Positions 3,524 through 28,739 of a stretch of 64,000 nucleotides of DNA are shown one piece after another. The stretch spans positions 899 through 64,898 of the forward strand of contig CAYSLU010000013.1 of assembly GCA_964431965.1 (NCBI GenBank). Direction: 5' to 3'. A program made the translations under genes and the position numbers. The stretch's first letter is position 1, and each line of letters opens with the position of its first letter. A model generated the notes under the pieces. That model saw nothing but the letters and a program-made list of their open reading frames with translations, made no database searches and was not told the origin of the DNA. The DNA is from an uncultured Verrucomicrobiota bacterium (lineage in GTDB: Bacteria > Verrucomicrobiota > Kiritimatiellia > CAIKKV01 > CAYSLU01).

Positions 3524-3528
3524 GCGGG

Positions 3529-4308: not shown

Positions 4309-4519
4309 GGTGATGCCTCCGTTGAATCCCGGGCCGTCCGTCGATGGCCCGGAGAATACGGGGCGAGACTATAGCCTGCGTGCCCCGCGATGATCCAGCC
4401 TGCTGTTGCGAGCTCCGTTGCCTCTAGCCGCAAGAAGGCGCGCGGGGGCGGACGGGGATCGAAGGGGAGCGGGGGGCGTGGTAGCATCTGGGCGTGCGTG
4501 ACTGGGGAGGGCATGAGCC

Positions 4520-12924: not shown

Positions 12925-14214
12925 TCAGCGCGTGATTCGCTCGTAGATCGACAGGACCGCGTCCGCCGCGGCCGCCCATCGGATGGACCGCAGCTCCTGG
13001 CGGCCGTTCCGCACCACCTCCCGCGCCAGAACGGGATACCGAAGGAGGGCGGCGATCTTCCCCGCCATCTCATCGATGTCCCAGAAGTCGACCTGCAGCG
13101 CGTGCTTGAGCACCTCGGCCACTCCGGCCTGGCGGGACACGATCACCGGAACGTCGTAGAGCATGGCCTCGAGCGGCGCGATTCCGAACGGCTCGGACAC
13201 GCTCGGCATGACATAGACGTCGCTCATCGCGTACATCCGCTCGACATCGTCCGCCCCCAGGAAGCCGGTGAAGTGGAACGCGCTCCCGATCCGCAGCTGG
13301 GCGACGCGGTCCACCATCCGCGGCAGCATGTCGCCGCTGCCCGCCATCACAAACGTGACGTCGGGGAGGCTGTGGAGGACGCGCGCGGCGGCCTCGACGA
13401 AGTAGTCCGGGCCCTTCTGGAACGTGACGCGGCCGAGGAAGAGCACGATGCGGCGCCCGTGCTCCTTCCGGACATGGTACACGGCGCCGGCCCGGCGGCG
13501 GGAGACGGCGTTGTGCACGACGGAGACCTTCTCGGGCGCGATTCCGTACCGGCTCAGGATGAGGCCGCGCGTGTAGTGGCTGACGGCGACGACGTGGTCC
13601 GCCGTCTCCATGGCCAGCTTCTCGATGGCGTAGACGTCGCGGTTGATGTTTTCCCCGCTGCGGTCGAACTCCAGGGCGTGCGCGTGGTACACGAGGGGCT
13701 TGCCGGAGAGCTTCCGCGCGCGGATGCCAGCCAGCGCGGTCATCCAGTCGTGCGCGTGGATGACATCAAAGCGCTCCCGCAGGGAGAGGGCGCCGGCCAC
13801 CTCGCTGTAGCGGATGACCTCCGACAGGAGGTTCGGCCCGTAGTCGCCGCCCATGTCGATCACGCTCTCGTGATGCCGGGGCTCCGGTCCGGACTCGCGC
13901 TCCCACTCGCGCCGGCGGAGCAGGGCCCGGTACTCGGGCTCGTTCAGGTAGGGCCGCAGCAGGGAGTCGACGCAGCGGACCTCCTCTTCGAGGAGGAATC
14001 GCTCGAGGCGCCGACGGCCATGGGCCACGCGCAGCGGGACGTGGGCGGCCGAGATCAGGTGCACGTGCGAGTCGGCCGGGCCGCGGGCGCGGGGGATGAC
14101 GAACAGGATCTCGGCGCCCCGTTGCCGCATGGCCATGGTCAGCCCGTGGCAGGCCGTTCCCAGACCGCCGCTGATGTGCGGCGGGAACTCCCAGCCAAAC
14201 ATGAGGACGCGCAT
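12925..14214 (-). CDS. GT4-family glycosyltransferase
   Basis: The N-terminus (VLMFGWEFPPHISGGLGTAC) and the C-terminal EPFGIAPLEAM block fit the GT-B GT4 fold. Length is 429 aa. Confidence 0.8.
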   Translation of the reverse strand: MRVLMFGWEFPPHISGGLGTACHGLTMAMRQRGAEILFVIPRARGPADSHVHLISAAHVPLRVAHGRRRLERFLLEEEVRCVDSLLRPYLNEPEYRALLRRREWERESGPEPRHHESVIDMGGDYGPNLLSEVIRYSEVAGALSLRERFDVIHAHDWMTALAGIRARKLSGKPLVYHAHALEFDRSGENINRDVYAIEKLAMETADHVVAVSHYTRGLILSRYGIAPEKVSVVHNAVSRRRAGAVYHVRKEHGRRIVLFLGRVTFQKGPDYFVEAAARVLHSLPDVTFVMAGSGDMLPRMVDRVAQLRIGSAFHFTGFLGADDVERMYAMSDVYVMPSVSEPFGIAPLEAMLYDVPVIVSRQAGVAEVLKHALQVDFWDIDEMAGKIAALLRYPVLAREVVRNGRQELRSIRWAAAADAVLSIYERITR

Positions 14215-14217
14215 GCT

Positions 14218-16215
14218 TCAGCCTCCCTTCCGCCGCGAAGGGCTGTCCAGCACCTTCAGCAGGCGCAGGATCTCGGCGACGCTCCACGCCTGCGCGATGC
14301 AGCCGTTCGGCCGGTGCGGAGGGTCGCCGTCGAACACCTCCGAGATGCTGCCCAGCCCGGCGTCCGAGAGGTGGTTGTCCAGGAGGGGGGCGATCGACCG
14401 GCGCAGGAAGGCGACGGCCTCCGACCGGTTGCGCGACACCCGCAGCATCGCGTCGCCGAAGTGGCCGAGCAGCCAGGGCCACGCCGTGCCCTGATGATAG
14501 GATCGGTCGCGCTCCTCGGGGCTCCCGGCGTAGCGCCCGCGGTAGCGGGGATCGGTCGGCGAGAGGGTGCGCAGCCCGAAGGGGGTCAGCAGGTCGTCGC
14601 GGACGCGGCGGACCACCGCCGTGGCCTGGTCGGGCTCCAGCGGCGAATGCGGCAGCGACACGGCGAACACCTGGTTCGGGCGTACCGACGCGTCGAGGCG
14701 CGCGCCGTCATGCACGTCTCCGAGGCAGCCGCCGGCGGCGTACCAGAACATCGCCCGGAAGGCGGCGGCGATCTGCTCCGGCGGGGCCGGCGGGGCAAAG
14801 CCCGAGTCGCCGAACGTGCGGGCGAGCGCGACGGCTTCGCAGACGGCGTTGTACCAGAGGGCGTTGACTTCGACCGGGAACCCGTGCCGGGGGGTGACGG
14901 GGCGGCCGTTCAGGCGCGCGTCCATCCACGTCAGCTGGGTGTCGGCGTCGCCGGCGCGCAGCAGCCCGCTCGGCGCCATGCCGATCCCGAAGTCCGTTCC
15001 GCGGGCGAACGCCGCGAGGATGCGCTTCATCGCCGGCCACAGCCCGTCGCGGACCACGGCGTCCGAGCCGCCATACCGTCGCAGTTGCTGGACGGCCCAG
15101 AAGAGCCATAGCGAGGCGTCGACCGAGTTGTAGGCGGCGCGGCCGTCGGATCCGATGCAGTTCGGGATGAGCCCCTTGTGCTCGCGTGCGGCCATGGCCA
15201 GCAGGATGGCCGCTCCCTCGTCTGCCCGGCCGCGACAGAAGGTCAGGCCCGGCAGCGATATGAGCGTGTCGCGGCCCCACGAGCCGAACCAGGGATAGCC
15301 GGCGACCACGGCCGGCTCGCCGCCCGGCCAGCGGACCAGAAAATCATCGGCCTGGTGGGCCAGCCGGACGGCGGGCGATTCCCCGCTTCTGGCGGCACGC
15401 GCGGTGGCGCGGGCGGCGGGCGGGGGGGTGGCGCGCCGGGAAGCCTCCCGCTTCCAGAGGTCCAGCGGCGAGGCGGACGGATCGGACGTGGAGGCGCGCA
15501 GCACGAGCACGCGCCCGGTTCGCAGCGGGAACTCGAACACGCCGGGCTGGAAGAGGTCTTCCCGGCCCGGGTAGCCGCGCTGCTCGTCGGTCACGTACTC
15601 GAACTGCCGGTACCAGAGCGGAGACGGCGAGAAGCCGGGCCGGATGTTCGTCGTGAGGCACAGGGGCGGCATGCCATTGTACGGCTGGATCTTGAACCCA
15701 TTCTCGATGGGGAACGTCCGGACCTGGAGAAAGATGTTTTCGCTCGTCAGCGCATCGGCGGCCCGGAAGGCGAGCAGGGGGCGGATCTGGATCGAGAACG
15801 GCGCGTCGGCGCGCTCGACGAAGTACCGGACGAGAACGGTGTTTTCGCCGTGAACCATCATCACGCTCTTGTGGATTCGGATGCCGCCGACGCGGTAGAC
15901 GGCGTGCGGCCCGTGATCCAGGCGGAACTCCTCCAGGTGGCGGTGGCCGTGCGGGTGGAACACGCCGGGGAACTTGTGGCAGGAGAGGGGGAACTCGCGC
16001 CCCTGGGCCACCAGGGTCTCGTCGATGCCGGAGAGCAGCACGAAGCGGCCGGGCGGCGTGTCCAGGCTGGCGACCAGGTACCCGTGGTATCGGCGGGTGT
16101 GGCACGAGACGACGGTGCTGGACGCGTAGCCGCCCAGGCCGTTCGTATCCAGCCATTCGAGCTCCAGGGCTTCCCGAAGGTTCTGGCTGTGCTCGTGCGT
16201 GAATCTGATTTCCAT
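14218..16215 (-). CDS. amylo-alpha-1,6-glucosidase / glycogen debranching enzyme family protein
   Basis: Its N-terminal domain resembles the bacterial/archaeal GDE N-domain, and the C-terminal region resembles an (alpha/alpha)6 GDE_C catalytic domain. Length is 665 aa. It is the first gene of the minus-strand glucan operon. Confidence 0.75.
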   Translation of the reverse strand: MEIRFTHEHSQNLREALELEWLDTNGLGGYASSTVVSCHTRRYHGYLVASLDTPPGRFVLLSGIDETLVAQGREFPLSCHKFPGVFHPHGHRHLEEFRLDHGPHAVYRVGGIRIHKSVMMVHGENTVLVRYFVERADAPFSIQIRPLLAFRAADALTSENIFLQVRTFPIENGFKIQPYNGMPPLCLTTNIRPGFSPSPLWYRQFEYVTDEQRGYPGREDLFQPGVFEFPLRTGRVLVLRASTSDPSASPLDLWKREASRRATPPPAARATARAARSGESPAVRLAHQADDFLVRWPGGEPAVVAGYPWFGSWGRDTLISLPGLTFCRGRADEGAAILLAMAAREHKGLIPNCIGSDGRAAYNSVDASLWLFWAVQQLRRYGGSDAVVRDGLWPAMKRILAAFARGTDFGIGMAPSGLLRAGDADTQLTWMDARLNGRPVTPRHGFPVEVNALWYNAVCEAVALARTFGDSGFAPPAPPEQIAAAFRAMFWYAAGGCLGDVHDGARLDASVRPNQVFAVSLPHSPLEPDQATAVVRRVRDDLLTPFGLRTLSPTDPRYRGRYAGSPEERDRSYHQGTAWPWLLGHFGDAMLRVSRNRSEAVAFLRRSIAPLLDNHLSDAGLGSISEVFDGDPPHRPNGCIAQAWSVAEILRLLKVLDSPSRRKGG

Positions 16216-16288
16216 CGTCTCGCCACTCCGCTTTACGCTCGAACGCTGTGAGCGGCGACATGGTACATGCGTTTTCCCGGGGGTTCAC

Positions 16289-16312
16289 GCAAAAAGCGAC
16301 AGCAAAAAGCGA
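16289..16312. promoter_or_regulatory. direct repeat GCAAAAAGCGA x2 in the promoter region of the glucan operon, a candidate operator
   Basis: GCAAAAAGCGA occurs at 16289-16299 and 16302-16312. It is one of the few A-rich stretches in the window and lies 75-100 nt upstream of the GDE start at 16215 on the minus strand. Confidence 0.3.
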
Positions 16313-16405
16313 ACCGCCGCGTGATGGGCCGGTGACGCGAGGGGGACGGAGCCCGAACCGGCCGGGCACGGCCGGCTCCAAGGAACCCGCTTCGCTTCGT
16401 CCCGT

Positions 16406-16430
16406 GGAGACGGCGGTCTCCGCCGTTCCG
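16406..16430 (-). terminator. GC-rich hairpin downstream of the two-component operon, a possible U-tract-less terminator
   Basis: GGAGACGGCGGTCTCCGCCGTTCC is a near-perfect palindrome about 45 nt past the stop of the 16474-17256 gene. No T-tract follows it. Confidence 0.25.
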
Positions 16431-16473
16431 ACCCTCCCGTCACGGACGCCTTACACCGCCGCGGGCGGCCGGC

Positions 16474-17256
16474 TCAGACCGGAGCCGGCGTCTCGCCCCG
16501 GCGGATCGCGTCGATCGTCTTGACCAGCCGCACGGGCAGGTTGCTCGGCACGAAGGCGGCCAAGTTGATCGGCCGCGAGGCGGCATCGCGCATCCCGCTC
16601 TCGTCGTAGACGATCACGGGCACGCCTTTGACGCTGGGCAGGGTGGACAGGATGGCGGCCGCGGCCGTGCCTTTCATGCGGGGGAGCAGCTGCTTGATCA
16701 CGATGACGGCCGGCGGCTCCATCACCGCCCGCTCGATGACCGCGTAGCCGTCCGCCACGGCGGTTACGGCATAGCCGGCCATGCCGATCACTTTGACCAT
16801 GTTTTCGCGCACCTCGGGATCGTCCTCGGCGAGGAGGACCTTCCATCCGGCTTCGCTGTCCGCCCCGCCGCCCGCGCTGGCGCGCCGCGCGGAGATGATC
16901 CGCCGCACCTCGCGGGTGAGCGTCTCGGGGTCCGACGTCTTGGGAAGGAACCCCGTCACCTCCACCTGCTGGAAGAACTTGTCCAGCTCGGCGCGCGCCG
17001 TGAAGATCAGGACGGGGTACATCAGGCTGCCCTGCGGAGTGGTCACCTTTCGGAGAAACGCCATGCCGCCCTCGCCGGGCATGCTGATGTCCAGGATGAT
17101 CAGGTCCGGCCGCGCGTCGTTCAGCCGTTCGAGCGCCTGCTCGCTGCTGGCGGCGCGGATCACCGCGTAGCCTTCCGACTCGAGCCGGTCCCCCACGGTC
17201 AACAGGATGGCCGGATCGTCGTCAACCAGCAGAATCGTATCTTTGTGTCCGCTCAT
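16474..17256 (-). CDS. response regulator with two receiver domains; the second looks like a pseudo-receiver
   Basis: Domain 1 has LLVDDD, ILDISMPG and FLPK. In domain 2 the ILD position reads VIVIKQLLP, so the phospho-acceptor Asp appears to be replaced by Lys. Confidence 0.8.
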   Translation of the reverse strand: MSGHKDTILLVDDDPAILLTVGDRLESEGYAVIRAASSEQALERLNDARPDLIILDISMPGEGGMAFLRKVTTPQGSLMYPVLIFTARAELDKFFQQVEVTGFLPKTSDPETLTREVRRIISARRASAGGGADSEAGWKVLLAEDDPEVRENMVKVIGMAGYAVTAVADGYAVIERAVMEPPAVIVIKQLLPRMKGTAAAAILSTLPSVKGVPVIVYDESGMRDAASRPINLAAFVPSNLPVRLVKTIDAIRRGETPAPV

Positions 17257-19955
17257 GGTTTCTCCTCCTGCGTTGTCTGGGGTGTCGTCTTGCCGTGCTG
17301 AAACGCTGTTCGTCCGATGATGGTTTCCTCGACCGCGTCAATGACCCGGTCGCGATGCCGCGGATGGGCGACGACGCGGATGGCCAGGTCTAGGAAGACC
17401 CGCATGTGGGCGTCGGTCGGCGAGTCGGATGCCACGGCCACGATCGGCACCTCGCGGAGCGCGTCACTGCACTTCAGGCGGATGGCCTCATCGAAGCCGC
17501 TGTCCGCGTTGATGACGATGCAGCTCGGCCGCTGGGCTCCGGCTGTCGGCGGCGTCTCCTCGGGGTGCTCGCTCGCGACGAGGCGGTAGCCGAACCCGGC
17601 CAACTGGCGCTCCACGGGCTCGCGCGCGTCTCCGAGCGGCCCGGCGATCAGGATGAGCGGCGGCTCGGTGGGCGGCAGGCGGACGAGGACCTGCGTGCCG
17701 CCGGCTCGCCCGGGCGCGGGGCTCGTCACCGACAGGTCGCCGCCGTGCAGTCCGATGATTTCCTTCGATATGGCCAGCCCGAGGCCAGACCCCTGGGTGT
17801 GGGTGCCGGCCCGGAAGTAGCGCTCGCCGATCTTCGGCAGCGCATCGTGGGGAATGCCGACCCCGGTGTCGGTAACCGTCAGCAGCGGTGCGCCGGACGG
17901 ATCGCGCGACACGGCGACGGACACGGACCCGCCGGCTGGAGTGAACTTGATGGCATTTCCAATGATGTTGTAGATGACACGCTCGAGGCGGGCCGGGTCG
18001 CATTCCACGAAGCCCGCCCTGTTGTCGACGGCCAGCTCGACCGTCACCAGCTTCTCCTCCGCCTGAACGCGCAGGCTCTCGGCGCCGCGCGCGACGATCC
18101 GGGAGAAGGGGAGCCGGATCCGGGCCATCTGCTGGGCGATGGAGTCGGCCTGCCTCATGTCGAGGATCGCGTTGACCGTGTGCAGCATCCGCTGCGACTC
18201 GCCTTCCAGCATTTTGAGGTACCGGTAGGCGTTCTCCGGAAGCGGCCCCGCCACGCCCTTGAGCAGGTTCCGGGTGGCGTAGATGAAGCTCGCGAGCGGG
18301 GTCCGGAGCTCGTGCGACACGTTCGAGACGAACTCCGACCGGATCCGGTCGTGGTCCTGAAGCCGCTCGATCGCGCGGCGCAGATCGACCTCCATGTGCT
18401 TGCGGTCGGTGATGTCGCTCCACATGGCGTGGATCAGGTTCTTGCCCCGGATGGTGATGAGCCGACTGCTGACCAAGACGTCGCGCAGCTCCCCGTTCTG
18501 GCGCCGGAACCGGGTTTCGTAAACGTCACGCCCCTCGCGGGCCGCCTTCTCGATGTGGCGGAGCAGGCCGCTCGCCTCGGTGCCCGCGTCGAAGTCGGTG
18601 ATGCGCAGCCGGGCATACTCCTCGCGGGTGTAGCCGAGCGACTCGTGCGCGGGGTCGTTGAACTCGGCGATCTCCTCGGTCTGGGCGTCGAAGATCACGA
18701 TCGAGTCCGCGGCTTGGTCGAAGATCGTGTGGTACCGCTCCATCGCTTCGCGGAATGCGGCCTCCACCCGCCGGCGCTCGGTGATGTCCTCGGCCATGGT
18801 CAGCTGCCAGATCGGCCGTGCGTCGGCATCCCGGATCATGGACGTGGTGGTGGCGGACCACACGATGTCGCCGGAGCGGGTCACATAGCGCTTCTCGAGC
18901 TTGTAGAAGGGGATCTCGCTCGCCGCCAGCTGATCGGTGTAGACGGTCTCGGCGTGCAGGTCCGGAGGGAAGGTCAGGTCCTGGCTCCTCATCCCGACCA
19001 GCTCCGACTCGGCGAAGCCGAGCATGGCGCACATGCTGCTGTTGACCCTCAGGAAGCGGCCGTCGGGCCCGCTCATCCCCATCCCGATCGGGCTTTCCTC
19101 GAACACCTTGCGGAACCGCTCCTCGCTGTCCCGGAGCGCCTCCTCCCCCCGCCGGTACTCCGTCATGTCCGTGATCATGGCCAGCGAGCCGATGTACCGG
19201 CCCTGCTTGTCGGTCAGGGGGTTCGACGAGACCAGCGTCCAGACGGGCCCGCCGTCCCGCCGCCGGAAGAGGAAGTCGTGGTGCTCGGATATTCCCTGGC
19301 GACGGCGCTCCAGGTAGGCCACGGCCTCCCGCTGGCCGTCCTCGTCCATGAAGTCGAACATGGATGCGCCCAGCATGTCCTGCACGTCCACGCCCAGCAT
19401 GTCGGCCATCTTGGCATTGACGAACGTGGTCATGCCCGAGGCGTCGATGGCCCATATCCCTTCCTGCGCGGTCTCGATGATCTGCCGGTGCCACTCTTCG
19501 CGCTCGTGCAGCAGGTCCTCGATCCGGCGCCGCTCGCGGCGATCCTCGGCCTCGCGCAGCTCCCGCTCGATGGCGGGCGTCAGCCGCGACAGGTTGTCCT
19601 TCATGACGTAGTCCTGCGCGCCGGCCTTCATGGCGCGGACGGCGGCTTCCTCGCCGATGGCGCCGGACACAACGATGAAGGGCGTGCTGAGGCGCGCGCG
19701 GCGGCAGATGTCCAGCGCCGCGAGCGCGTCGAAGGCCGGCATGCTGTGGTCGGACAGGATCACGTCCCACTGGCCCCAGCCGATGGCGTCCTGCATCGCG
19801 AGCGCCGAATCCACGCGGTGGGCCGTCACCTCGTAACCGCCGCGGCGGAGCTCCCTCTGGATGAGCAGCGCGTCATCCTCGGAGTCCTCGATCATGAGGG
19901 CGCGCAGGGGCTTCAGGGGGGCGGCTTCCGGGGCGGTGGGATCCGGGGATGTCAC
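17253..19955 (-). CDS. hybrid sensor histidine kinase (REC-PAS-PAS-PAS-HisKA-HATPase with a degenerate C-terminal receiver-like region)
   Basis: The receiver has MIEDSEDD...ILSDHSMP. It carries three PAS-like segments, an H-box (VSHELRTPL) and a G-box (GSGLGLAISKEI). I place the start at GTG 19955-19953, preceded by a perfect AGGAGG 8 nt upstream, which makes a GTGA overlap with the upstream RR stop. An alternative ATG lies at 19895. Confidence 0.8.
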   Translation of the reverse strand: MTSPDPTAPEAAPLKPLRALMIEDSEDDALLIQRELRRGGYEVTAHRVDSALAMQDAIGWGQWDVILSDHSMPAFDALAALDICRRARLSTPFIVVSGAIGEEAAVRAMKAGAQDYVMKDNLSRLTPAIERELREAEDRRERRRIEDLLHEREEWHRQIIETAQEGIWAIDASGMTTFVNAKMADMLGVDVQDMLGASMFDFMDEDGQREAVAYLERRRQGISEHHDFLFRRRDGGPVWTLVSSNPLTDKQGRYIGSLAMITDMTEYRRGEEALRDSEERFRKVFEESPIGMGMSGPDGRFLRVNSSMCAMLGFAESELVGMRSQDLTFPPDLHAETVYTDQLAASEIPFYKLEKRYVTRSGDIVWSATTTSMIRDADARPIWQLTMAEDITERRRVEAAFREAMERYHTIFDQAADSIVIFDAQTEEIAEFNDPAHESLGYTREEYARLRITDFDAGTEASGLLRHIEKAAREGRDVYETRFRRQNGELRDVLVSSRLITIRGKNLIHAMWSDITDRKHMEVDLRRAIERLQDHDRIRSEFVSNVSHELRTPLASFIYATRNLLKGVAGPLPENAYRYLKMLEGESQRMLHTVNAILDMRQADSIAQQMARIRLPFSRIVARGAESLRVQAEEKLVTVELAVDNRAGFVECDPARLERVIYNIIGNAIKFTPAGGSVSVAVSRDPSGAPLLTVTDTGVGIPHDALPKIGERYFRAGTHTQGSGLGLAISKEIIGLHGGDLSVTSPAPGRAGGTQVLVRLPPTEPPLILIAGPLGDAREPVERQLAGFGYRLVASEHPEETPPTAGAQRPSCIVINADSGFDEAIRLKCSDALREVPIVAVASDSPTDAHMRVFLDLAIRVVAHPRHRDRVIDAVEETIIGRTAFQHGKTTPQTTQEEKP

Positions 19956-20428
19956 AGCGCAACCTCCTGGGCAGGCGCCGCCCCTTGGGGGACAGGCGGC
20001 TGTTCGTTGAGCGTGAGCCAGTACAGCCGGAGGGCGGTCACCACACTCATGAACTCCGTGAAATCGATCGGCTTGCGCACGTAGCTGTTGCACCCGAGCC
20101 GGTAGCTTCGGAGCAGGTCGGTCTCCGTCTGGGACGAGGTGAGGATGACCACCGGCAGCAGCTGGGTGCGCGGGTCCGACCGGAGGCGCCGCAGCACCTC
20201 CAGGCCGTCGATCCGGGGGAGTTTCAGGTCAAGGAGGACCAGCCCGGGCAGATCGTTCGGGTTCCGCCCGGCGTACCCGCCGGTCCCGAAGAGGTAGTCC
20301 AGCGCCTCGGCGCCATCCCGCACCACCGCGACGGGGGGGGCGAGCTTGTGCTGACGGAACGCCCTCAGCGTGAGGTCCGCGTCGTCCGCGTTGTCTTCCA
20401 CCAGAAGGATTGAGGATTGAGTCGCCAT
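19952..20428 (-). CDS. single-domain CheY-like response regulator
   Basis: It starts MATQSSILLVEDNADDADL and has VLLDLKLP (phospho-Asp) and SYVRKP (conserved Lys). An SD-like GGGAGGAG sits 5 nt upstream of the ATG at 20428. The 281-aa track ORF has an N-terminal noise extension. Confidence 0.85.
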   Translation of the reverse strand: MATQSSILLVEDNADDADLTLRAFRQHKLAPPVAVVRDGAEALDYLFGTGGYAGRNPNDLPGLVLLDLKLPRIDGLEVLRRLRSDPRTQLLPVVILTSSQTETDLLRSYRLGCNSYVRKPIDFTEFMSVVTALRLYWLTLNEQPPVPQGAAPAQEVAL

Positions 20429-20480
20429 ACGCTCCTCCCGGGTCATCGGGGGACAAACCCCACGAATCGACGACGCGCGG

Positions 20481-22589
20481 TCATGCGGCCTCCTGCGCCG
20501 GAGCGGGAGGCCCCGGCAGCGTGAAGTAGAACGTCGCGCCCTCGCCGGACTGGCCTTCGGCCCAGACCCGTCCCCCGAGCCGGTGGATCGCCCGCTGCAC
20601 GGTCGCCAGCCCGATGCCGGTCCCGGCGAACTCGCCGGGCGCGTGCAGTCGCTGGAACGCCCCGAACAGCTTGTCCGCATAGCGCATGTCAAAGCCGACG
20701 CCATTGTCCCGCACGAAGAACGCGCGGCCGTCGCCGTCGCCCGTCCGTCCGACTTCAATGCGCGCATCCGCCCGCCTGGCCGTGAACTTCCATGCATTGC
20801 CGATCAGGTTGGAAAGCGCGATCCTCAGCAGGCGCGCGTCAGCGATGGCACGGAGCCCGGCCTCCGGGACGAACGTCACCTGCCGATCCGGTGCCTCCGC
20901 CCGCACATCCTCGAAGGCGTCCGCGGCGATGGCGCCGACGTCAACCAGCTGCCACGCCACGTCGCTGCGCGTGACGCGGGAGAGCGAGAGCAGGGCGTCG
21001 ATCAGCTGGCCCATGTGCTGGGCCGCCGCCCGCACTCGGGCCAGATCGGCGGCTCCCGCCGGGATCAGCCGGTCGCCGCAGTCCTCCTCGAGCGCCTGTC
21101 CGAAGCCGTCGATCGCGCGGAGCGGCGCCCGCAGGTCGTGCGACACGGAGTAGGCGAAGGACTCGAGCTCCCGGTTGATGCTGTCGAGCTCGGCCGTGCG
21201 CGCCTGGACGCGGCGCTCGAGGTCCGCGTTGAGATTCCGCAGCCCGGCCTCGGCGGCTCGCTTGTCGGTGATGTCGATCCCGGTCCCGATGACGTACTGC
21301 ACGGCCCCGTCGGGGCCGACGATGCAGGTGTTGGACCAGTCGATCCACCGGCGCTCGCCGCTCCGTCGGAGCCAGTGGTTCTCGTGCCGGCTCGGGAAGT
21401 CGCCCGCCCGGAGCCGCTGGAAGATCCGCCGCACCTCGCCGACCTCTTCGGGCGCGAGGAACAGATCCCAGAAGGGCCGGCCGACGACCTCCGCGAACGT
21501 GTAGCCCGTGGTCTGCTCGCATGCGCGGTTGAACCGGGCTATCCGGCCTTCGGGGTCGAGAACCACGACCAGGGCGCCGACGGTCTCGGTCAGCGCCGCC
21601 AGGAAATCCCGCTCGTCCCGGAGCTCGCACTCGCTCTGGAACCGCGCGCCGATCTCCCGGACCAGGTCGTCGTTGGCCTGCCGGAGCTGAGCGGTCCGCG
21701 CCTGCACCTGCTGCTCCAGCTCGGCGTTGAGCCGGCTGACCTCTTGGGCGCTCTCCTCCAGCCGCTGCTCGCTGCAGTGGATGGAGCGGGCGCTGGTCCA
21801 GATGAGGGCGGCGAGCAAGGCGGTGACGGCGGTGGTCATTAGCGTTAGCCCGAACTCAGTGCCGTAGAGGCTGGCGCGCTCGCCTGCGATGCGGAGCCAG
21901 CCGAGCGCGACGGGGATCAGGACCGCCGCGGGGATAAGGCGGCGCAGCATGGAGCCCGACAGGCTGCGGCTGGCGAGCACGCGCACGAGGGTGGCGTCCG
22001 GGGTCATGGCCATCGAGCCGACCGCCAGCGCCAGAACCATCGCGATCCCCGGCGTGGGGATGGCCAGGTGCGCGGCGATGCCGTCGTCGGAGCGGTTCCC
22101 ATACAGGTGCTGGATGGCGGCGATGAAGGCGATGCCGGCGGCCGCGAGCGCGGGGAGGGCGATCAGGCGGGGGCGGATGCGGGCGGAGCCCAGCAGCAGG
22201 GCCCCCGCCGCGAGTGCGATCGCGGCATGGGTGGCGGCCGCCGGAGCGCCATGCTCGGCGGTGGCGGCTCCAACGCGCGCAGCCAGTGCGCACTGAGCGG
22301 AGCCGAAGGCGCCCAGCACGAAAGCGGCTCCGGCGAGACAGGCGGCAGCCGCGTCGCCGGTTGCACTCTGCCCGTTCGCGCGGCCCCGTGCCTGCACGGC
22401 GAGCGCGATGCCGCACAGGCAGAACTCGAGCGTCACCGCTCCGCACGGGATGGGGGAGCGCCCGGCGGCGGCCCACGCCAGGGCGCCGGCCGATACCGCG
22501 ATGCCCGCCGTTCCGGCCAGGAGCCCGGCGTGCCGCCCGGCCGAGAGCAGCGCGGCGTCCAGGATCGCCATGGGGTTCGGGAGTCTCAT
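20481..22589 (-). CDS. membrane-anchored PAS sensor histidine kinase
   Basis: The in-frame ATG at 22589 (MRLPNPMAILD...) forms an ATGA overlap with the upstream gene's stop. About 280 aa of multi-helix hydrophobic sensor region are followed by a coiled coil, a PAS domain, an H-box (VSHDLRAPL) and an HATPase (GTGIGLATV). The first 378 aa of the 1080-aa track ORF are noise. Confidence 0.8.
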   Translation of the reverse strand: MRLPNPMAILDAALLSAGRHAGLLAGTAGIAVSAGALAWAAAGRSPIPCGAVTLEFCLCGIALAVQARGRANGQSATGDAAAACLAGAAFVLGAFGSAQCALAARVGAATAEHGAPAAATHAAIALAAGALLLGSARIRPRLIALPALAAAGIAFIAAIQHLYGNRSDDGIAAHLAIPTPGIAMVLALAVGSMAMTPDATLVRVLASRSLSGSMLRRLIPAAVLIPVALGWLRIAGERASLYGTEFGLTLMTTAVTALLAALIWTSARSIHCSEQRLEESAQEVSRLNAELEQQVQARTAQLRQANDDLVREIGARFQSECELRDERDFLAALTETVGALVVVLDPEGRIARFNRACEQTTGYTFAEVVGRPFWDLFLAPEEVGEVRRIFQRLRAGDFPSRHENHWLRRSGERRWIDWSNTCIVGPDGAVQYVIGTGIDITDKRAAEAGLRNLNADLERRVQARTAELDSINRELESFAYSVSHDLRAPLRAIDGFGQALEEDCGDRLIPAGAADLARVRAAAQHMGQLIDALLSLSRVTRSDVAWQLVDVGAIAADAFEDVRAEAPDRQVTFVPEAGLRAIADARLLRIALSNLIGNAWKFTARRADARIEVGRTGDGDGRAFFVRDNGVGFDMRYADKLFGAFQRLHAPGEFAGTGIGLATVQRAIHRLGGRVWAEGQSGEGATFYFTLPGPPAPAQEAA

Positions 22590-23701
22590 GCCTCCGCCCC
22601 TCCCGATGGCTGGGTGCCGGGCGCGCCGGCGGGGGAGGGGAACTGGAACTCGAACGACAGGCCGGCGCGCCGCCCGATCGTCATCGTTCCGTGGAGCTGC
22701 TCGCTCAGGGTTCGGACGAGGTTGAGCCCGAACGAGTGGTCCCGCTCGGAGTCCAGCCCCGGCGGCAGTCCGCAGCCGTTGTCCGCCACGCCGAGGTGAA
22801 GCACCCCGTCGCGCGAGTGGAGCGAGAGGCGAATCTCGCGGGACGCCCGCCGAGGCTTGCCGTCGCCCGGCTCCGGCGGGAAGGCGTACTTCATCGCGTT
22901 CGACACGAGCTCGGTGATGATCAGGCCGCAGGGGATGGCCGTGTTGATGTCGAGCTCGACGTCCTCGCACTCGTATCGGAGCGCGATTCCCCGCGCGAGG
23001 GCGCCGTGCGAGCGGACGAGCTCGTCCCCGAGGCTGCGGATGTAGGCGGCGAACGAGATGCGCGTGAAGTCCTGGGACTCGTACAACTTTTCGTGCAACA
23101 GAGCCATGGATCGGACGCGGTTGCGCAGGTCCATGAACCGGTCCAGGTCGCGGCGGTTCTTGACGAATCGGGCCTCCATGTTGACGAGGCTGCAGATGAT
23201 CTGCAGGTTGTTCTTCACGCGGTGGTGAATCTCGGTGATCAGGATCTCCTTCTCCCGAAGGGATGCCTTGAGCCGCTCCTCGGCCGACCGCCGCTCCTGC
23301 CGCACCCTCGCTTCGCGCAGCTCGCGCTCGACCACCGAGAGCAGCCGCGCGGTGTGCCCCTTCATCAGGAAGTCGTGGGCGCCCGACTTCATGTCCGCCA
23401 CGGCGCGCTCTTCGCCGATGACGCCGGAGACGATCACGAACGGGATGTCGAGTTGGCGGGCGGTGATGATCGCCAGGGCCTCGGTTGACGAGAAGCTCGG
23501 CAGGCTGTGGTCGGCGAAGACGAAGTCCCACCCGCCGGCGTCCAGGGCGGCGGTGAGGGCGGCCGCCGTCTCGACCCGGAGGTGATCGACGGCATAGCCG
23601 CCCCGCTGGAGCTCGCGCAGCAGGAGGAACGCGTCGTCCTCGCTGTCCTCGACGATCAGCACGCGTAACGGCTTCGCTTCGGCGTGAACATCGGCATCCA
23701 T
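22586..23701 (-). CDS. receiver-domain histidine kinase of HisKA_2/HWE type (REC + HWE kinase)
   Basis: The N-terminal REC (LIVEDSEDD...FADHSLP...MKSGAHDFLMK) is a close paralog of the REC in the 17253-19955 kinase. HHRVKNNLQIICSLV is the HisKA_2 H-box. An HATPase_c_2 domain is at the C-terminus. Confidence 0.8.
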   Translation of the reverse strand: MDADVHAEAKPLRVLIVEDSEDDAFLLLRELQRGGYAVDHLRVETAAALTAALDAGGWDFVFADHSLPSFSSTEALAIITARQLDIPFVIVSGVIGEERAVADMKSGAHDFLMKGHTARLLSVVERELREARVRQERRSAEERLKASLREKEILITEIHHRVKNNLQIICSLVNMEARFVKNRRDLDRFMDLRNRVRSMALLHEKLYESQDFTRISFAAYIRSLGDELVRSHGALARGIALRYECEDVELDINTAIPCGLIITELVSNAMKYAFPPEPGDGKPRRASREIRLSLHSRDGVLHLGVADNGCGLPPGLDSERDHSFGLNLVRTLSEQLHGTMTIGRRAGLSFEFQFPSPAGAPGTQPSGGAEA

Positions 23702-23765
23702 CGTCCACCTCCGCGCCCGGCATCCCTCCCGTCCGGCACGCCCCCTCCCCATCGGTCCCGCCTCC

Positions 23766-24218
23766 TCAGGCGCTTCGGTCCGGGGGTGGCGGGATCTCGT
23801 TGAGCACGAGCCAGTAGAGCCCGAGCTGCTTCACGGCGTCCATGAACTGGCCAAAGTCCACCGGCTTGACCACGTAGCTGTTGCAGCCCAGCCGATAGCT
23901 CTCGGCCAGATCCCGCTCCTCCTTGGATGTCGTCAGCATGACGATCGGAAGGAGCCGGGTCCGGGGATCGGACCGGAGCCGGGACAGGACTTCCAGGCCG
24001 CTGATCCGCGGGAGCTTCAGGTCGAGCAGAACGACCGCCGGCAGGTCGTACGGGTCGCGCCCGGCGTGCGCGCCCTCGGCGAAGAGGTAGTCGAGCGCTT
24101 CCTCGCCGTCCCGGCAGACCACCAGGTCGTTGGCGATGCTGTTCTTCTTGAATGCCCGCCGCGTGAGCTCCACATCGTCCGGCGTGTCTTCGACGAGCAG
24201 GATATGCGAACGCTTCAT
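23766..24218 (-). CDS. single-domain CheY-like response regulator, paralog of 19952-20428
   Basis: It starts MKRSHILLVEDTPDD and has VLLDLKLP and SYVVKPVDF. It is about 60% identical by eye to the 19952-20428 protein. Confidence 0.85.
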   Translation of the reverse strand: MKRSHILLVEDTPDDVELTRRAFKKNSIANDLVVCRDGEEALDYLFAEGAHAGRDPYDLPAVVLLDLKLPRISGLEVLSRLRSDPRTRLLPIVMLTTSKEERDLAESYRLGCNSYVVKPVDFGQFMDAVKQLGLYWLVLNEIPPPPDRSA

Positions 24219-24449
24219 CCGGTCTCCCCCGCTGAGTCGCCGCGCAATCGATCCGACGACATTACCCGCCAGCTGCCGTGATTCTGATAACGAGAGGGGT
24301 GAGTTGGCAACAACTATTTACACCGCTCTGGCTCGCGCCCGCTGCGCGTCAGAAACGCCCCGGAAAGACGTTGGCCGGCGGGCCGCCGGGACCTATGCTA
24401 CGGGCTTTCGGCCGCTGTCGAGCAGGCGGCTGACGACGCGGGAGGATCC

Positions 24450-25409
24450 ATGAAGCTATCGGTCTATGAGCCGCTCGCGCACTATGCGGACATACGCGGG
24501 CTGTGGGAACGGGCGCTGGGCGGAACCTATCCGGTGAGCGAGCGCGTCCTGTGGCCGCGCGTGGCCGCCCGGGTCACGCAGGAGCCGGGCGATGGGGTGG
24601 TGGCCGAAGCCGGCGGGCGGGTGGTCGGATTCGCTCTGGCGGAGATCGATCGGGCGCCTCTTCGCCCGACGGATACCGGCTCCGTGCAGGTCCTGATGGT
24701 GGACCCGGAGCACCGGCGCCAGGGGATCGCCGCGGCCCTGCTCGAGCGTCTCCATGCGAGGCTCGCCGGCGCAGGGTGCCGCCAGGCCATGGTGGGCACC
24801 GGGCTGCACCGATTCTGGAGCGGCGTGCCCGTGGACCTCGCGGACGCCGGCCGGTTCTTTGAGCGTCACGGCTATAGCGTGAGCTATGAAGCGATCGACA
24901 TGTACGGCGCGTGGTCCGGGTTTCGAATGGAGGACCGGTGTCGCGCCCGGCTGTGTGAGCACCGGGTCGAGGTGGGTGCGGTCACGGACGCCGACGTCGG
25001 CTCGTTCTACGACTTCCTGTCGCGTGAGCAGCCGGGGTGGCGGGCGTCCATGCTGGCCATGGTCCATGCCGGAGACATGGACCACCTGGTCTTCCTGCGC
25101 GTCGGAGCGGAAGTCGTCGGCGCGATACAGACCTTCTCGCCCCGCAGCCGGTTCCGCGCGGCCAACCTGGTCTGGGAGCGGCTGTACGGCGAGCAGATGG
25201 GCGGGTTCGGCGCCGTGTTGATCGCCAACGCGTGGCGGGGGAAGGGGCTGGGCACATGCCTCTGCCAGGCCGCGGCGGAGCATATTGCCGCGCGCGGCGC
25301 GACCGGGTGCTTCATCGACTGGACGTCACACGCCCGGGCACCCCTGTACCGGAAGGTGGGCACGGAGGTGTGCCGCACCAACCGCATGTATCTCAGGGCG
25401 CTGGTCTGA
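24450..25409 (+). CDS. GNAT-family N-acetyltransferase, apparently with two GNAT-like halves
   Basis: VDPEHRRQGIAAALL and ANAWRGKGLGTCL are Q/RxxGxG/A acetyl-CoA binding motifs. Length is 319 aa. Confidence 0.65.
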   Translation: MKLSVYEPLAHYADIRGLWERALGGTYPVSERVLWPRVAARVTQEPGDGVVAEAGGRVVGFALAEIDRAPLRPTDTGSVQVLMVDPEHRRQGIAAALLERLHARLAGAGCRQAMVGTGLHRFWSGVPVDLADAGRFFERHGYSVSYEAIDMYGAWSGFRMEDRCRARLCEHRVEVGAVTDADVGSFYDFLSREQPGWRASMLAMVHAGDMDHLVFLRVGAEVVGAIQTFSPRSRFRAANLVWERLYGEQMGGFGAVLIANAWRGKGLGTCLCQAAAEHIAARGATGCFIDWTSHARAPLYRKVGTEVCRTNRMYLRALV

Positions 25410-26817
25410 CCGCACGCCGCGCGATCGTCCGCCACGCCTCCTCCGCGTCCGGCAGGAGCGAGAACAGGACGAAGAGGCCGGCCGGCACGAGGTGCGAGAA
25501 GAGCCGGTCGATGGTCGTCCGGACGTGCCACGCCAGGTCGTGCGGAGTCAGCAGCAGGACGAGCAGGTAGGCGAGCGCGGTCGCGGCGAGCGCGGCCGCC
25601 GGAGCGGCCAGCGCGCGGGACGGACGCAGGGCGCGAAGGGCGAGCATGACGACGATCGACGCCGCGAGCGCGATTTCCCACGGCCGGAGCAGGAGGGCGC
25701 GCAGGCCGTCCAGCAGGATCCGGTAGCGGAGCGGATCGGCCAGGCGGCCGAGCGTGGCTGACGGATCGGCGCACCATGCCGCCATGAGGTCGTTCGCCGG
25801 GGCGCCGGCGGCCTTGGCTGAAAGCGCGGGCATCAGCGCGGGTAGTGAGCCCAGCACAAAGCACGCAAGCGCCCGGAACTCGGCCTTGCGGCGGGGGCCG
25901 ACGAGCACGCGCCTGCCGAGGATGGCCAGCAGAACACCGAGCGGAATCAGCCCCTCGTTCTTGGCCGATGCGGCGAAGCCGGCGAAGAACCCGGCGAGGG
26001 CGGCCAGCGCGTTTCCGCGGGTTCCGCCGGTGTCCCGCATGTGCAGGAACACGACGGCGCCCAGCAGCCCGTAGGCAACGAAGTTGTCGGCGTACTGCCA
26101 GGACGCGAAGATCCACGTCCACGAGGCCGTCGCGAGGAACATGCCGGCCAGCATGCCGTTCCAGCGGCCGGCGCGGCGAGCGATCCCCGCCGCCAGGAGC
26201 AGCGCGGCGGCGAGCAGGACGGCGACCTGGATCGCGATGGGGATGAGCGGGGTCTCCATGCCGCCGACCGTCCATCCGCGCGCGACGCTGAGCGGGAGCA
26301 GGGGCGGGTACTCCGAATGGGACACCAGCGGAGAGAAGATGTCGGCCCAGTGTGCCCCGCCGTCCCGAACCAGCATCCGGGCCCGCATGTTCCAGATGGC
26401 CCAGGCATCCCACTGGCCGTGCGGGCTGAGCAGTGCGACAAGGAACGCGGAGACGCAGCCGACGGCCAGCGTGAACGCGAAGAGAGCGACGAGCGTGCGC
26501 TGGGGGGCAGGCGGGGCGTCGGAGCGGTCGGGACTGCCGGACCCGTCCGACCGGCCAGACGGGCGGCGCCGCCAGGCGAGGGCGGCGGCCAGGGCGAGCA
26601 CGGCCGCGCACTCCGCGGCCAGCGTCAGCGGTCGGCTGGGGCCGCACGTGGCGACCCACGCGAGGAACGCGGTGGAGGTCAGGCCCAGGCCGATGCCGAA
26701 GCCGGCGGCCAGTTGCATCGCGCGGCGCCAGGGAGCGCGCGAGTCCGGAACGCCCAGAAGCGCGAGGATGCACCAGCCGATGAGCAGCGGGAGTACGATG
26801 ACCGGAAGGGCGTACAC
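25393..26817 (-). CDS. polytopic membrane protein, putative GT39/ArnT-like glycosyltransferase
   Basis: The start is a GTG at 26817 with GGAAGGAG upstream. The protein has more than 10 predicted TM helices. The 588-aa ORF at 25007-26773 in another frame is Arg/Pro noise. Confidence 0.6.
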   Translation of the reverse strand: MYALPVIVLPLLIGWCILALLGVPDSRAPWRRAMQLAAGFGIGLGLTSTAFLAWVATCGPSRPLTLAAECAAVLALAAALAWRRRPSGRSDGSGSPDRSDAPPAPQRTLVALFAFTLAVGCVSAFLVALLSPHGQWDAWAIWNMRARMLVRDGGAHWADIFSPLVSHSEYPPLLPLSVARGWTVGGMETPLIPIAIQVAVLLAAALLLAAGIARRAGRWNGMLAGMFLATASWTWIFASWQYADNFVAYGLLGAVVFLHMRDTGGTRGNALAALAGFFAGFAASAKNEGLIPLGVLLAILGRRVLVGPRRKAEFRALACFVLGSLPALMPALSAKAAGAPANDLMAAWCADPSATLGRLADPLRYRILLDGLRALLLRPWEIALAASIVVMLALRALRPSRALAAPAAALAATALAYLLVLLLTPHDLAWHVRTTIDRLFSHLVPAGLFVLFSLLPDAEEAWRTIARRAVRPAP

Positions 26818-26818
26818 C

Positions 26819-27346
26819 TCAGGGCGTCTCCTTCCGGTAGAGGCGGAGGAACAGGCCGCCGGATATCGAGTCGCTCCAGACGATCCGGTAGCCGGACACG
26901 GCGCCTTCCGCGATAGCCGGGGCGGCATTGGTCGAGACCTCGAGCACCGCGGCGCGCGGCGTCGGGTGCGTCCGGTCCATCGCGAGGCCGACGATCTCGA
27001 AGCGATGCGCGGCGCCCGCCAGGCGCGCCGGGAGTCGCGGGTTGAGATCGAACAGCAGCGGGGCCGCATCATACTGGAGGCTGAATGCCACCAGCTCCGC
27101 ATCCGGCGACGGCAGGTCCGTGATGTATCCGACGGGAGCCGGGCCCGCGGCCGCCCGGGCCGCGGCCGCCTTTGCGGTGGACTCGGACGCGAAGGCGTCG
27201 GGATCGGAGCGTGCGAAGCCGAGGCCGGGGTAGCGAGCCGCCACGTGCGGCCAGGCGCCGCACGTCGTGCGGATGCCGGTTGCGACGGAGCCGCCGGCTA
27301 CGCCGAGGGCGAAGAGCAGCATGAGGATGGCGGCCGGCTTCTTCAT
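26819..27346 (-). CDS. small secreted hypothetical protein
   Basis: It has a signal peptide (MKKPAAILMLLFALGVAGG). Its stop lies 1 nt before the downstream membrane-protein start. Confidence 0.5.
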   Translation of the reverse strand: MKKPAAILMLLFALGVAGGSVATGIRTTCGAWPHVAARYPGLGFARSDPDAFASESTAKAAAARAAAGPAPVGYITDLPSPDAELVAFSLQYDAAPLLFDLNPRLPARLAGAAHRFEIVGLAMDRTHPTPRAAVLEVSTNAAPAIAEGAVSGYRIVWSDSISGGLFLRLYRKETP

Positions 27347-27494
27347 GGCTGAAAGCGGAACCGTGAAGTGCGCCTTGTACTCCCCGGGTGCGCCGATGGC
27401 AAGCGCGGGGCGGCTTCGTCTGCCCGGACGTTGTGCGGCCGGCGGCGAGTGATATAGTAGCGCGCTTCGGACCTTGGAGATCGAGGAGGATCAC

Positions 27495-28724: not shown

Positions 28725-28739
28725 TTCGGGCGGGGCCGC

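Follow-up and report, generated by a model that had tools for sequence, protein, structure and literature searches.

A six-gene operon of Rec-controlled kinases and phytochrome-type response regulators in an uncultured Verrucomicrobiota bacterium: a candidate two-tier two-component cascade

The window analyzed here is a 64,000-nucleotide stretch of DNA from an uncultured Verrucomicrobiota bacterium [contig CAYSLU010000013.1, positions 899 to 64,898 of the forward strand]. Between positions 16474 and 24218, its minus strand carries six signaling genes, which are numbered G1 to G6 in the direction of transcription. G1 to G6 form a real, co-directional six-gene signaling operon, in which G2/G3, G4/G5, and G5/G6 are translationally coupled. 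The operon is built from two gene linkages that recur in unrelated bacteria. One is a cassette consisting of a sensor histidine kinase (HK), a response regulator (RR), and a Rec-controlled histidine kinase (Rec-HK), i.e., a kinase with a receiver (REC) domain at its N terminus. The other is the pairing of a G5-type kinase with a G6-type protein. We suggest, with a probability of roughly 0.55, that the locus encodes a two-tier two-component cascade, where a kinase controls other kinases and the signal would flow in a branched manner from the membrane sensor kinase G3; we infer every phosphotransfer step from gene order and homology. The locus is a new arrangement of the two-tier cascade already described for Leptospira (Lvr) and Rhizobium (BphP1-AgR-ExsG-ExsF) and not a new kind of system, and no new principle emerges from it. 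What distinguishes it is that a single sensor is combined with two Rcp-type regulators and with two Rec-kinases whose cores belong to different families, together with a putative degenerate receiver in G5 and a terminal protein of an uncharacterized family in which a receiver is followed by a pseudo-receiver.

Organization of the operon

A preliminary description of this DNA, which was made from the sequence alone, reported six minus-strand genes with overlapping or near-overlapping junctions at 16474-24218. Both the coordinates and the junctions are confirmed. The products of G1 to G6 are 150, 371, 702, 158, 900, and 260 amino acids (aa) long, respectively, and the same lengths were obtained where public contigs encoding these proteins or their orthologs had been gene-called independently. 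G1 (23766..24218) is separated by a 64-nt gap from G2 (22586..23701), which overlaps G3 (20481..22589) by the sequence ATGA. A spacer of 52 nt (20429..20480) lies between G3 and G4 (19952..20428). G4 and G5 (17253..19955) share the sequence GTGA, with GTG as the G5 start codon, and G5 and G6 (16474..17256) again overlap by ATGA. A GGAGG-type ribosome-binding site is present 5′ of all six starts. The G+C content is ~70% throughout the window.

Annotation with Pfam confirms the domain architectures that had been assigned to the six proteins. G1 and G4 are single-domain RRs of the phytochrome-associated Rcp/BRR type. G2 is a Rec-controlled kinase with a REC domain, a helical linker, a DHp domain (dimerization plus histidine phosphotransfer) of the HisKA_2/HWE type, and a HATPase_c domain, an assignment to which matches in the PDB contribute. 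G3 is a membrane sensor kinase composed of approximately eight hydrophobic segments (residues 1-265), a PAS domain, HisKA, and HATPase_c. G5, the second Rec-controlled kinase, carries a REC domain, three PAS domains, HisKA, HATPase_c, and a tail that pairwise homology identifies as a probable degenerate receiver. G6 combines a REC domain with a pseudo-receiver, as judged from a family alignment and an AlphaFold2 (AF2) model.

On reading of the sequences, all three kinases appear intact, with H-box histidines at H160 (G2), H484 (G3), and H548 (G5) and with N and G boxes present. Moreover, besides the receiver of G6, there are four canonical receivers with acceptor residues: D66 in G1, D67 in G4, D64 in G2, and D69 in G5. 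The term "branched multi-kinase phosphorelay" used in the preliminary description names the right class. That description also held that the locus lacks a DNA-binding output domain, and Pfam indeed detects neither a DNA-binding nor any other output domain in any of the six proteins. A phmmer scan of all open reading frames (ORFs) of at least 60 aa in the 64-kb window, in which the REC domains of the operon and the G2 and G3 kinase cores served as queries, detected no additional receivers or kinases. The proposed chemotaxis-like output lacks support, since, in addition to the absence of another kinase, the six proteins have no CheA, CheW, or methyl-accepting chemotaxis protein (MCP) domains according to Pfam; outside these six proteins, no search aimed at CheW or MCP was made.

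The regulators G1 and G4

Response_reg is the sole Pfam domain in G1 and G4 (the latter starts with MATQSS), and the E-D pair, the acceptor aspartate, the T/S, and the K expected of a functional receiver can all be read from both sequences. The best solved relatives of G1 are 5ic5 and 5brj (E 1e-44), a Ramlibacter and an Agrobacterium protein, respectively. Among the followers are 5te9, 3heb, 4zyl, RcpA, RcpB, 6xvu/8avv, Rcp1, and the regulator of the Deinococcus BphP, and phytochrome RRs outrank every other RR class among the solved structures for G1. In a collection of 5.8 billion proteins, G1 has 7,999 relatives at E<=1e-20, and those listed are 64-81% identical to it. No PHY or GAF photosensory module was found by Pfam in the six proteins, and the adjacent G3 is phytochrome-like in its kinase core only.

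The sensor kinase G3

Among solved structures, the G3 kinase core matches the unnamed histidine kinase 8f71 best, followed by bacteriophytochrome kinase modules in second and third place, ahead of HK853. Against the NCBIfam LvrA model, G3 reaches a score of 197 relative to a cut-off of 1200 (E 5e-58). The core is 56-64% identical to the sensor kinases encoded upstream of Rcp-type RRs in four other loci (L129, L130, L133, and L131), whereas the identity to the G5 core is only 27-28%. In this context, the DHp helix around the phosphorylated histidine is nearly invariant among G3 and the cassette sensor kinases. G3 is therefore a native component of the cassette and not, as the preliminary description had it, a membrane PAS kinase inserted between two modules.

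Relaxing the threshold to E<=10 still yields no Pfam family for the N-terminal region of G3 [residues 1-265, window 21795-22589 on the minus strand], which comprises the ~8 hydrophobic segments. This region is ~60-65% identical to the corresponding region of the ortholog in a closely related contig (L131, see below), with ~80% identity in the last segments, and may represent an undescribed membrane sensor module.

The Rec-controlled kinases G2 and G5

Both G2 and G5 fit the layout of Rec-controlled kinases or hybrid response regulators (such as LvrB, ExsG, PakF, and PhcR), in which an N-terminal receiver with its acceptor aspartate is followed by the DHp histidine and the catalytic and ATP-binding domain. 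Their kinase cores belong to different Pfam families, HisKA_2 in G2 and HisKA in G5. The Pfam scores of G2 are 88.4 bits for HisKA_2 (cut-off 22.3), 30.6 for HWE_HK (22.8), and 43.7 for HATPase_c (26.4). In the PDB, residues 13-200 of G2, covering the receiver and DHp, match LvrB (8vc9), and the HisKA_2 kinase core matches EL346 (4r3a). The NCBIfam LvrB model scores G2 at 68 and G5 at 149 relative to a cut-off of 500 (receivers with E 7e-19 and 2e-43, respectively), while the best NCBIfam match of the G2 kinase core is PhyK, with a score of 102 relative to 750. A genome scan with G2 yielded 80 loci that are related via the HisKA_2 core only (34-46%) and one, L051, that is related via the receiver only (57%); tblastn searches of these loci with G1, the G2 receiver, and G6 revealed no synteny. 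G5 has a sole close database homolog, P0246 (87% identity). The next best matches are at most 41% identical over part of the length, or more identical over at most 22% of the query.

The last ~135 residues of G5 align with the canonical C-terminal receivers of two kinases encoded in loci L134 and L135 (28% identity, pairwise E 5e-12 and 6e-10). In the G5 tail, the acidic pair is replaced by G-P, the acceptor aspartate by N816, and the conserved lysine by histidine. On the basis of this pairwise homology, the tail is classified as a degenerate receiver [residues ~766-885, 17301..17660 on the minus strand]. It gives no Pfam match even at E<=10, an hhalign comparison with the G6-family pseudo-receiver returns E 4e-4 at a probability of 35%, and an AF2 model built from two sequences is of low confidence, with a predicted local distance difference test (pLDDT) value of 51. 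The degenerate tail is also present in the G5 ortholog of L131.

A recurrent sensor kinase, response regulator, and Rec-kinase cassette

The neighborhoods of five G1 homologs (69-74% identical) on long contigs were surveyed. In all five foreign loci, a sensor HK is followed directly by an Rcp/BRR-type RR and then by a kinase of the type REC-(PAS/GAF)-HK. The input domains of the sensor kinases vary, being CHASE3, HAMP, dCache, GAF, or DUF4118, each together with PAS, and none of the five contexts includes a recognized phytochrome module. The conserved parts are the sensor kinase core (at the 56-64% given above), the RR (65-75%), and the receiver of the Rec-HK (51-58%). In L129, two Rec-kinases come after the RR, one with the REC-HisKA_2 architecture of G2 and one of the REC-PAS-HisKA type. 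Within the operon, G3-G4-G5 corresponds to the canonical order of the cassette, and G1-G2-G3 comprises the same parts in a permuted order (RR, Rec-HK, sensor).

The terminal protein G6 and its pairing with G5-type kinases

G6 had been described as a terminal double-receiver protein. This holds for its first domain, while the family alignment identifies the second domain as a conserved pseudo-receiver. The matches listed for G6 include 119 non-self homologs that are 38-53% identical over 83-100% of the length, and the members of this family are ~255 aa long. In an alignment of 38 sequences (37-51% identical), residues D12, D13, D56, T86, and K106 of the first receiver are invariant. In the second domain [residues ~138-253, 16498..16845 on the minus strand], the column of the acceptor holds a lysine (K188 in G6) or another non-acidic residue, with lysine in most of the 38 members, and the T and K signatures are absent. 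The AF2 model, which was built on the family alignment, has a pLDDT of 89.8 and shows two REC-like folds, the second of which lacks helix 4. Its best fold matches are to the stem of PleD, which consists of a receiver and an adaptor receiver (D1/D2; E 3e-14). Judged from the aligned sequences, the second half of G6 is a conserved pseudo-receiver, and only the first domain qualifies as a receiver. Used alone as the query, the pseudo-receiver domain retrieves 404 cluster representatives at E<=1e-10, and approximately one-third of the best 150 matches are proteins of 245-285 aa that are matched in their second half. A metagenome scan with full-length G6 gave generic matches to the first receiver only (28-46% identity over part of the query).

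Five genomic contexts of G6-family genes were examined (L123, L125, L127, L134, and L135). In L134 and L135, the G6 homolog lies directly after a kinase of the architecture PAS-HisKA-HATPase-REC or REC-PAS-HisKA-HATPase-REC, and in L134, the two genes overlap by 4 nt. Over 384-514 residues (G5 residues 387-892), with the C-terminal receiver included, both kinases share 40% identity with G5. The G5-G6 pairing is therefore recurrent, which supports the suggestion that G5 is the phosphodonor of G6. G5 is thus the joint between the two linkages, combining an N-terminal receiver of the cassette type with a kinase body of the G6-linked type.

The remaining contexts have features of their own. In L127, a gene at 8835-10004 that encodes a REC-SpoIIE protein (PP2C phosphatase) overlaps the start of the G6-family gene by 4 nt, and its receiver is 57% identical to that of G2; a receiver of the Rec-kinase type is thus also fused to a phosphatase effector beside a G6-family gene. 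No signaling gene adjoins the G6 homolog in L123 and L125. In L123 (10001-10768), L125 (10001-10783), and L127 (10001-10798), all contigs of metagenome-assembled genomes, the G6-family gene follows a mraW-ftsL-ftsI-murE-murF-mraY-murD-LysM-ftsW cluster at its end and faces ftsW in convergent orientation. P0127, which is among these ftsW-convergent proteins and is 49% identical to G6, is also present in SRR21424288, a run of the same series as the window. Hence, a G6 paralog linked to the division and cell wall (dcw) cluster may exist in the same community or organism.

A close relative with an additional sensor pair

The contig that encodes P0246, L131, carries orthologs of the operon genes in the same order, with identities of 76% (G2), 74-77% (G3), 81% (G4), 87% (G5), and, for the first 50 residues of G6, 96%. 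Two extra genes stand between its orthologs of G3 and G4 (2741-5279). One product, of 346 aa, is an NMT1-like periplasmic binding protein, and the other, of 495 aa, is a HAMP-HisKA kinase that shares ~63% core identity with G3. According to blastn, L131 1-2746 corresponds to window 23227-20479 and L131 5276-8616 to window 20446-17105, while L131 2747-5275 has no orthologous counterpart in the window; the site of these 2.5 kb is the spacer between G3 and G4. Entire sensor modules can thus distinguish close relatives. The order of binding protein, HAMP kinase, RR, and Rec-HK also occurs in the unrelated locus L129, whose binding protein is 31% identical to that of L131. Both indel junctions carry the sequence ATGACC, and the 37-nt spacer has no clear remnant. 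Either the operon once had a binding protein and a HAMP kinase before G4, or L131 gained them; deletion is favored only because L129 shares the order.

The ratio of nonsynonymous to synonymous substitution rates (dN/dS) relative to L131 is 0.24 for G2 (3′ part), 0.27 for G3, 0.15 for G4, and 0.12 for G5. All the compared parts (G2 to G5), including those without a dedicated sensor here, are under purifying selection. The idea that recombination between the paralogous 3′ ends of the G3 and HAMP kinase genes removed the sensor pair and made G3 a chimera was also considered and rejected, as G3 is closer to its L131 ortholog than to the HAMP kinase along its whole length.

Proposed signal flow and alternatives

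G3 is the sole kinase without a receiver in the window and is therefore the only evident entry point. In the proposed cascade, G3 would sense a membrane or PAS-borne signal, autophosphorylate on H484, and pass the phosphoryl group in a branched manner to D66 of G1, D67 of G4, D64 of G2, and D69 of G5. The phosphorylated receivers would then switch the kinase cores of G2 and G5. Precedents exist for both signs, since LvrB is activated and ExsG is inhibited. G1 and G4 could act as competing phosphate acceptors or as dimerizing modulators that shape the response. G5 phosphorylated on H548 would in turn phosphorylate D56 of G6, and the pseudo-receiver of G6 would relay the signal by altered protein-protein contacts or oligomerization, in the manner of PleD with its D1/D2 stem. 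Both the final output and the G2 target are placed outside the operon and the window.

Several observations weigh against this cascade. No kinase lies upstream of G1 and G2, and G3 follows them, unlike the canonical order in which the sensor precedes the RR. Three of the five G6-family contexts have no adjacent kinase, the gene being an orphan or located behind the REC-SpoIIE phosphatase gene, and the sampling covers five contexts per family only. Moreover, helix 1 differs at several positions between G1 and G4, which could mean that their partners are insulated, and in L131, the G4-G5-G6 part has its own HAMP kinase, suggesting that G3 is not the native donor of these three. The last two points lead to an alternative that we regard as possible, although on the unlikely side, namely that the operon harbors two insulated pathways that are merely co-transcribed. 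G3 would then serve only G1 and G2 as a permuted cassette, and G4-G5-G6 would constitute a second cassette whose own sensor is missing here and which would be fed by a kinase encoded elsewhere, by acetyl phosphate, or only through the PAS domains of G5. The dedicated binding protein and HAMP kinase directly before the G4 ortholog in L131 fit this alternative, as does the same gene order in the unrelated L129. In addition, G2 and G3 are coupled by an ATGA while 52 nt separate G3 from G4, G5 itself has three PAS domains, and activation of LvrB by acetyl phosphate has been put forward as an alternative (PMC5863495). However, cross-phosphorylation is plausible, given a core identity of ~63% between G3 and the HAMP kinase and nearly invariant DHp helices. 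G4 and G5 are also the most constrained genes (dN/dS 0.15 and 0.12) despite the absence of the HAMP kinase, and no other kinase was detected in the 64-kb window that might feed a second pathway.

The preliminary description proposed that one RR + REC-HK module was duplicated in tandem at this locus and diversified into a HisKA_2 and a PAS-HisKA branch, with the later insertion of a kinase. Two adjacent pairs of RR and Rec-HK genes are indeed present, and the paralogy on which this proposal rests is real: G1 and G4 are 65% identical (96/148), and the receivers of G2 and G5 are 50% identical (59/118), or 53% over 132 residues without composition adjustment. The receiver motifs listed in that description are present as well (with PFVIVSG in G2 and PFIVVSG in G5), and both pairs lie well above the 30% identity below which it would consider paralogy to be superficial. 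Local duplication is nevertheless improbable, since foreign proteins are as close as, or closer than, the putative local sister copies. Of 119 listed non-self homologs, 118 are nearer to G1 (67-81%) than is G4 (65%), which is not among the best 120. The same foreign proteins (median identity 64%, maximum 68%) and G1 are equally similar to G4, and G1 is closer to the G4 ortholog of L131 (70%) than to its neighbor G4. Likewise, N-terminal receivers of Rec-kinases from three unrelated loci share 51-58% identity with those of G2 and G5, compared with the 50-53% between the latter two. The different families of the G2 and G5 kinase cores and the status of G3 as a native cassette component also argue against local duplication. 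Hence, G1/G4 and the receivers of G2/G5 are members of two old, widespread, and conserved families that travel together, rather than local duplicates. Finally, the locus might be a decaying remnant that has lost the binding protein and the HAMP kinase, with two degenerate receivers and a partly non-functional G4-G6 segment. Such decay would account for the absence of the sensor pair relative to L131 and for the receiver-like domains without an acceptor aspartate in both G5 and G6. We consider it highly improbable, given six intact frames with ribosome-binding sites and coupled starts and dN/dS values of 0.12-0.27. Moreover, the pseudo-receivers are conserved and are not recent lesions, as lysine occupies the acceptor position in most of the 38 G6-family members and the G5 tail is kept in L131, and the indel may instead be an insertion in L131.

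Relation to known systems

The same three parts as in the operon, i.e., a sensor kinase, an Rcp-type RR, and a REC-kinase, are found in the BphP1-AgR-ExsG-ExsF system of Rhizobium NT-26/Agrobacterium and in an operon of Ramlibacter. In Rhizobium NT-26, experiments showed branched transfer from BphP1, which phosphorylates AgR, an Rcp-like regulator, as well as Asp62 of ExsG, a REC-HWE kinase; phosphorylation of the receiver inhibits the autokinase activity of ExsG, and phosphorylated ExsG phosphorylates ExsF (Wojnowska et al. 2013, PMC3899027). In Ramlibacter tataouinensis, the gene order is BphP1-BRR-"atypical hybrid HK", and the phenotype of the kinase mutant is that of the phytochrome mutants (PMC6848086). 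G2 has the same REC + HWE/HisKA_2 architecture as ExsG, G1 and G4 are nearest to solved phytochrome RRs, and the G3 core is phytochrome-kinase-like. By position and architecture, G6 can be likened to ExsF in that both are receiver proteins without an output domain at the end of a cluster. The phytochrome photosensory module is absent here, the sensor being a polytopic membrane and PAS kinase, and there are two RR/Rec-HK pairs instead of one, with a permuted gene order in the first cassette. Furthermore, the HisKA core of G5 is of the classical kind and is accompanied by three PAS domains and a putatively degenerate C-terminal receiver, and the terminal protein consists of REC and a pseudo-receiver.

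The prototype of the Rec-HKs is LvrB of Leptospira, which is a phosphorylation target of LvrA. Once its receiver is phosphorylated, LvrB is activated via a signaling helix and phosphorylates LvrC, the gene for which lies elsewhere (PMC5863495, PMC13269768). As in the operon discussed here, an upstream kinase and a downstream Rec-HK are encoded together, although phosphotransfer is known for Lvr and is read from the genes in our case. A single sensor supplies two Rec-HK modules in Lvr, namely the internal one of LvrA and that of LvrB, as G3 would do with G2 and G5, and the Lvr operon likewise lacks a DNA-binding domain, with LvrC as the true output protein encoded elsewhere. On the other hand, G3, G2, and G5 score far below the cut-offs of the LvrA and LvrB models (NF047465 and NF047466) and are thus not orthologs. 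The Lvr system has no Rcp-type single-domain RR, its proteins are cytoplasmic, and LvrC is a REC-anti-sigma protein, whereas G6 is of the REC-pseudo-REC type.

The relation to the KipF-PakF pair is by architecture only. PakF combines REC with HisKA_2, as does G2. According to the account in PMC5863495, which cites Kaczmarczyk et al. 2015, KipF phosphorylates the sensor-less REC-kinase PakF in the general stress response of Sphingomonas melonis, and PakF signals onward. The operon described here showed no PhyR, NepR, or EcfG gene, although no search aimed at them was made.

With respect to G6, the stem of PleD (1w25, 2v0n, and 2wb4) has a phosphorylatable receiver followed by an adaptor pseudo-receiver, as in the G6 model. 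In PleD, phosphorylation repacks the D1/D2 pair and drives dimerization. G6 differs from PleD in having no GGDEF or other effector domain, the identity is ~21%, and the TM-scores over the whole chain are low (0.4) as the orientation of the domains differs. A dual-receiver protein is also found in the Red operon of Myxococcus xanthus, which encodes two kinases, a dual-receiver protein, and a single-domain RR, has no output domain, and lacks Rec-HKs; phosphate is shuttled among the components, and RedD uses both of its receivers. The likeness to the Red system lies in the combination of kinases, a dual-receiver protein, and an RR, and the differences are the absence of Rec-HKs in Red and the lack of an acceptor in the second domain of G6. 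The "four-component" system RedC-RedD-RedE-RedF is reportedly described in Jagadeesan et al. 2009 in J Biol Chem.

Rec-HK-based cascades in which a kinase controls a kinase have been studied biochemically in a few organisms only, chiefly with ExsG, PakF, and LvrB, and the mechanism of LvrB was resolved in 2026. In this context, the locus could serve as a small natural model of how branching, sinks, and degenerate receivers shape signal flow, as it unites a single sensor with two Rec-kinases of different core families, two candidates for phosphate sinks, and a pseudo-receiver adaptor. In the foreign metagenomic loci sampled, the phytochrome-associated triad of kinase core, BRR-type regulator, and Rec-kinase receiver recurs together with non-light sensors. 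Clusters of this kind are common in environmental bacteria; the triad with non-light sensors and the G6 family are still of specialist note.

A broader and more speculative interpretation, which we consider doubtful, is that the sensor-kinase core, the Rcp-type regulator, and the Rec-kinase receiver represent a portable three-protein signal-processing unit, conserved at 51-75% across phyla, that is plugged onto interchangeable sensors and outputs. Two such units on one sensor would here converge via G5 on a previously unrecognized family of terminal adaptors (REC plus a Lys-type pseudo-receiver). If this were true, the location of G6-family genes in other genomes, either terminating the cell-division/cell-wall cluster or following a REC-PP2C gene, would point to a non-transcriptional output onto envelope growth or, in the window, onto the adjacent glycogen genes.

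Genomic surroundings

The intergenic region upstream of G1 (24219..24449, 231 nt) is presumed to be the promoter region of the operon, which reads from its minus strand. No same-strand gene lies upstream, and the region is common to a divergent gene on the plus strand (24450-25409) that Pfam identifies as a two-domain GNAT acetyltransferase. It includes one weak sigma-70-like match [24310->24281, TTGCCA-18-CAGAAT], where 0.6 would be expected. Rfam and tRNA scans of the window found nothing.

Downstream of G6, a cluster of glycogen genes on the same strand starts after 258 nt. The Pfam assignments are a glycogen debranching enzyme (14218-16215), a GT4 protein (12925-14214), a GH57 protein (11686-12879), and a synthase-phosphorylase fusion of 1416 aa. 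The gap between G6 and the debranching enzyme gene (16216-16473, minus strand) contains GC-rich hairpins and one weak terminator-like site, and its folding is no better than that of shuffled sequence (z = -0.86). Transcriptional read-through from the signaling operon into the glycogen genes is neither shown nor excluded. The fusion is encoded by a single ORF (7432-11682, minus strand). Its glycogen synthase domain is of the eukaryote type (PF05693, residues 11-338) and is joined to a GT1 segment that comes with DUF3417 and alpha-glucan phosphorylase (residues 834-1183). Glycogen synthesizing and degrading enzymes would thus share one polypeptide. It is overlapped by a 933-aa ORF (6029-8830, minus strand) whose domains (metallo-beta-lactamase, beta-CASP, and RMMBL; RNase J-like) are confined to the C-terminal ~450 residues, and the real gene therefore probably spans ~6029-7430.

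On the other side of the operon, three large minus-strand ORFs (25393-27102, 27069-28508, and 28740-30140) have no Pfam match. For this part of the window (25393-30140), public gene calls on the contig L001 give products of 474, 175, and 466 aa together with a GFO_IDH_MocA oxidoreductase on the plus strand.

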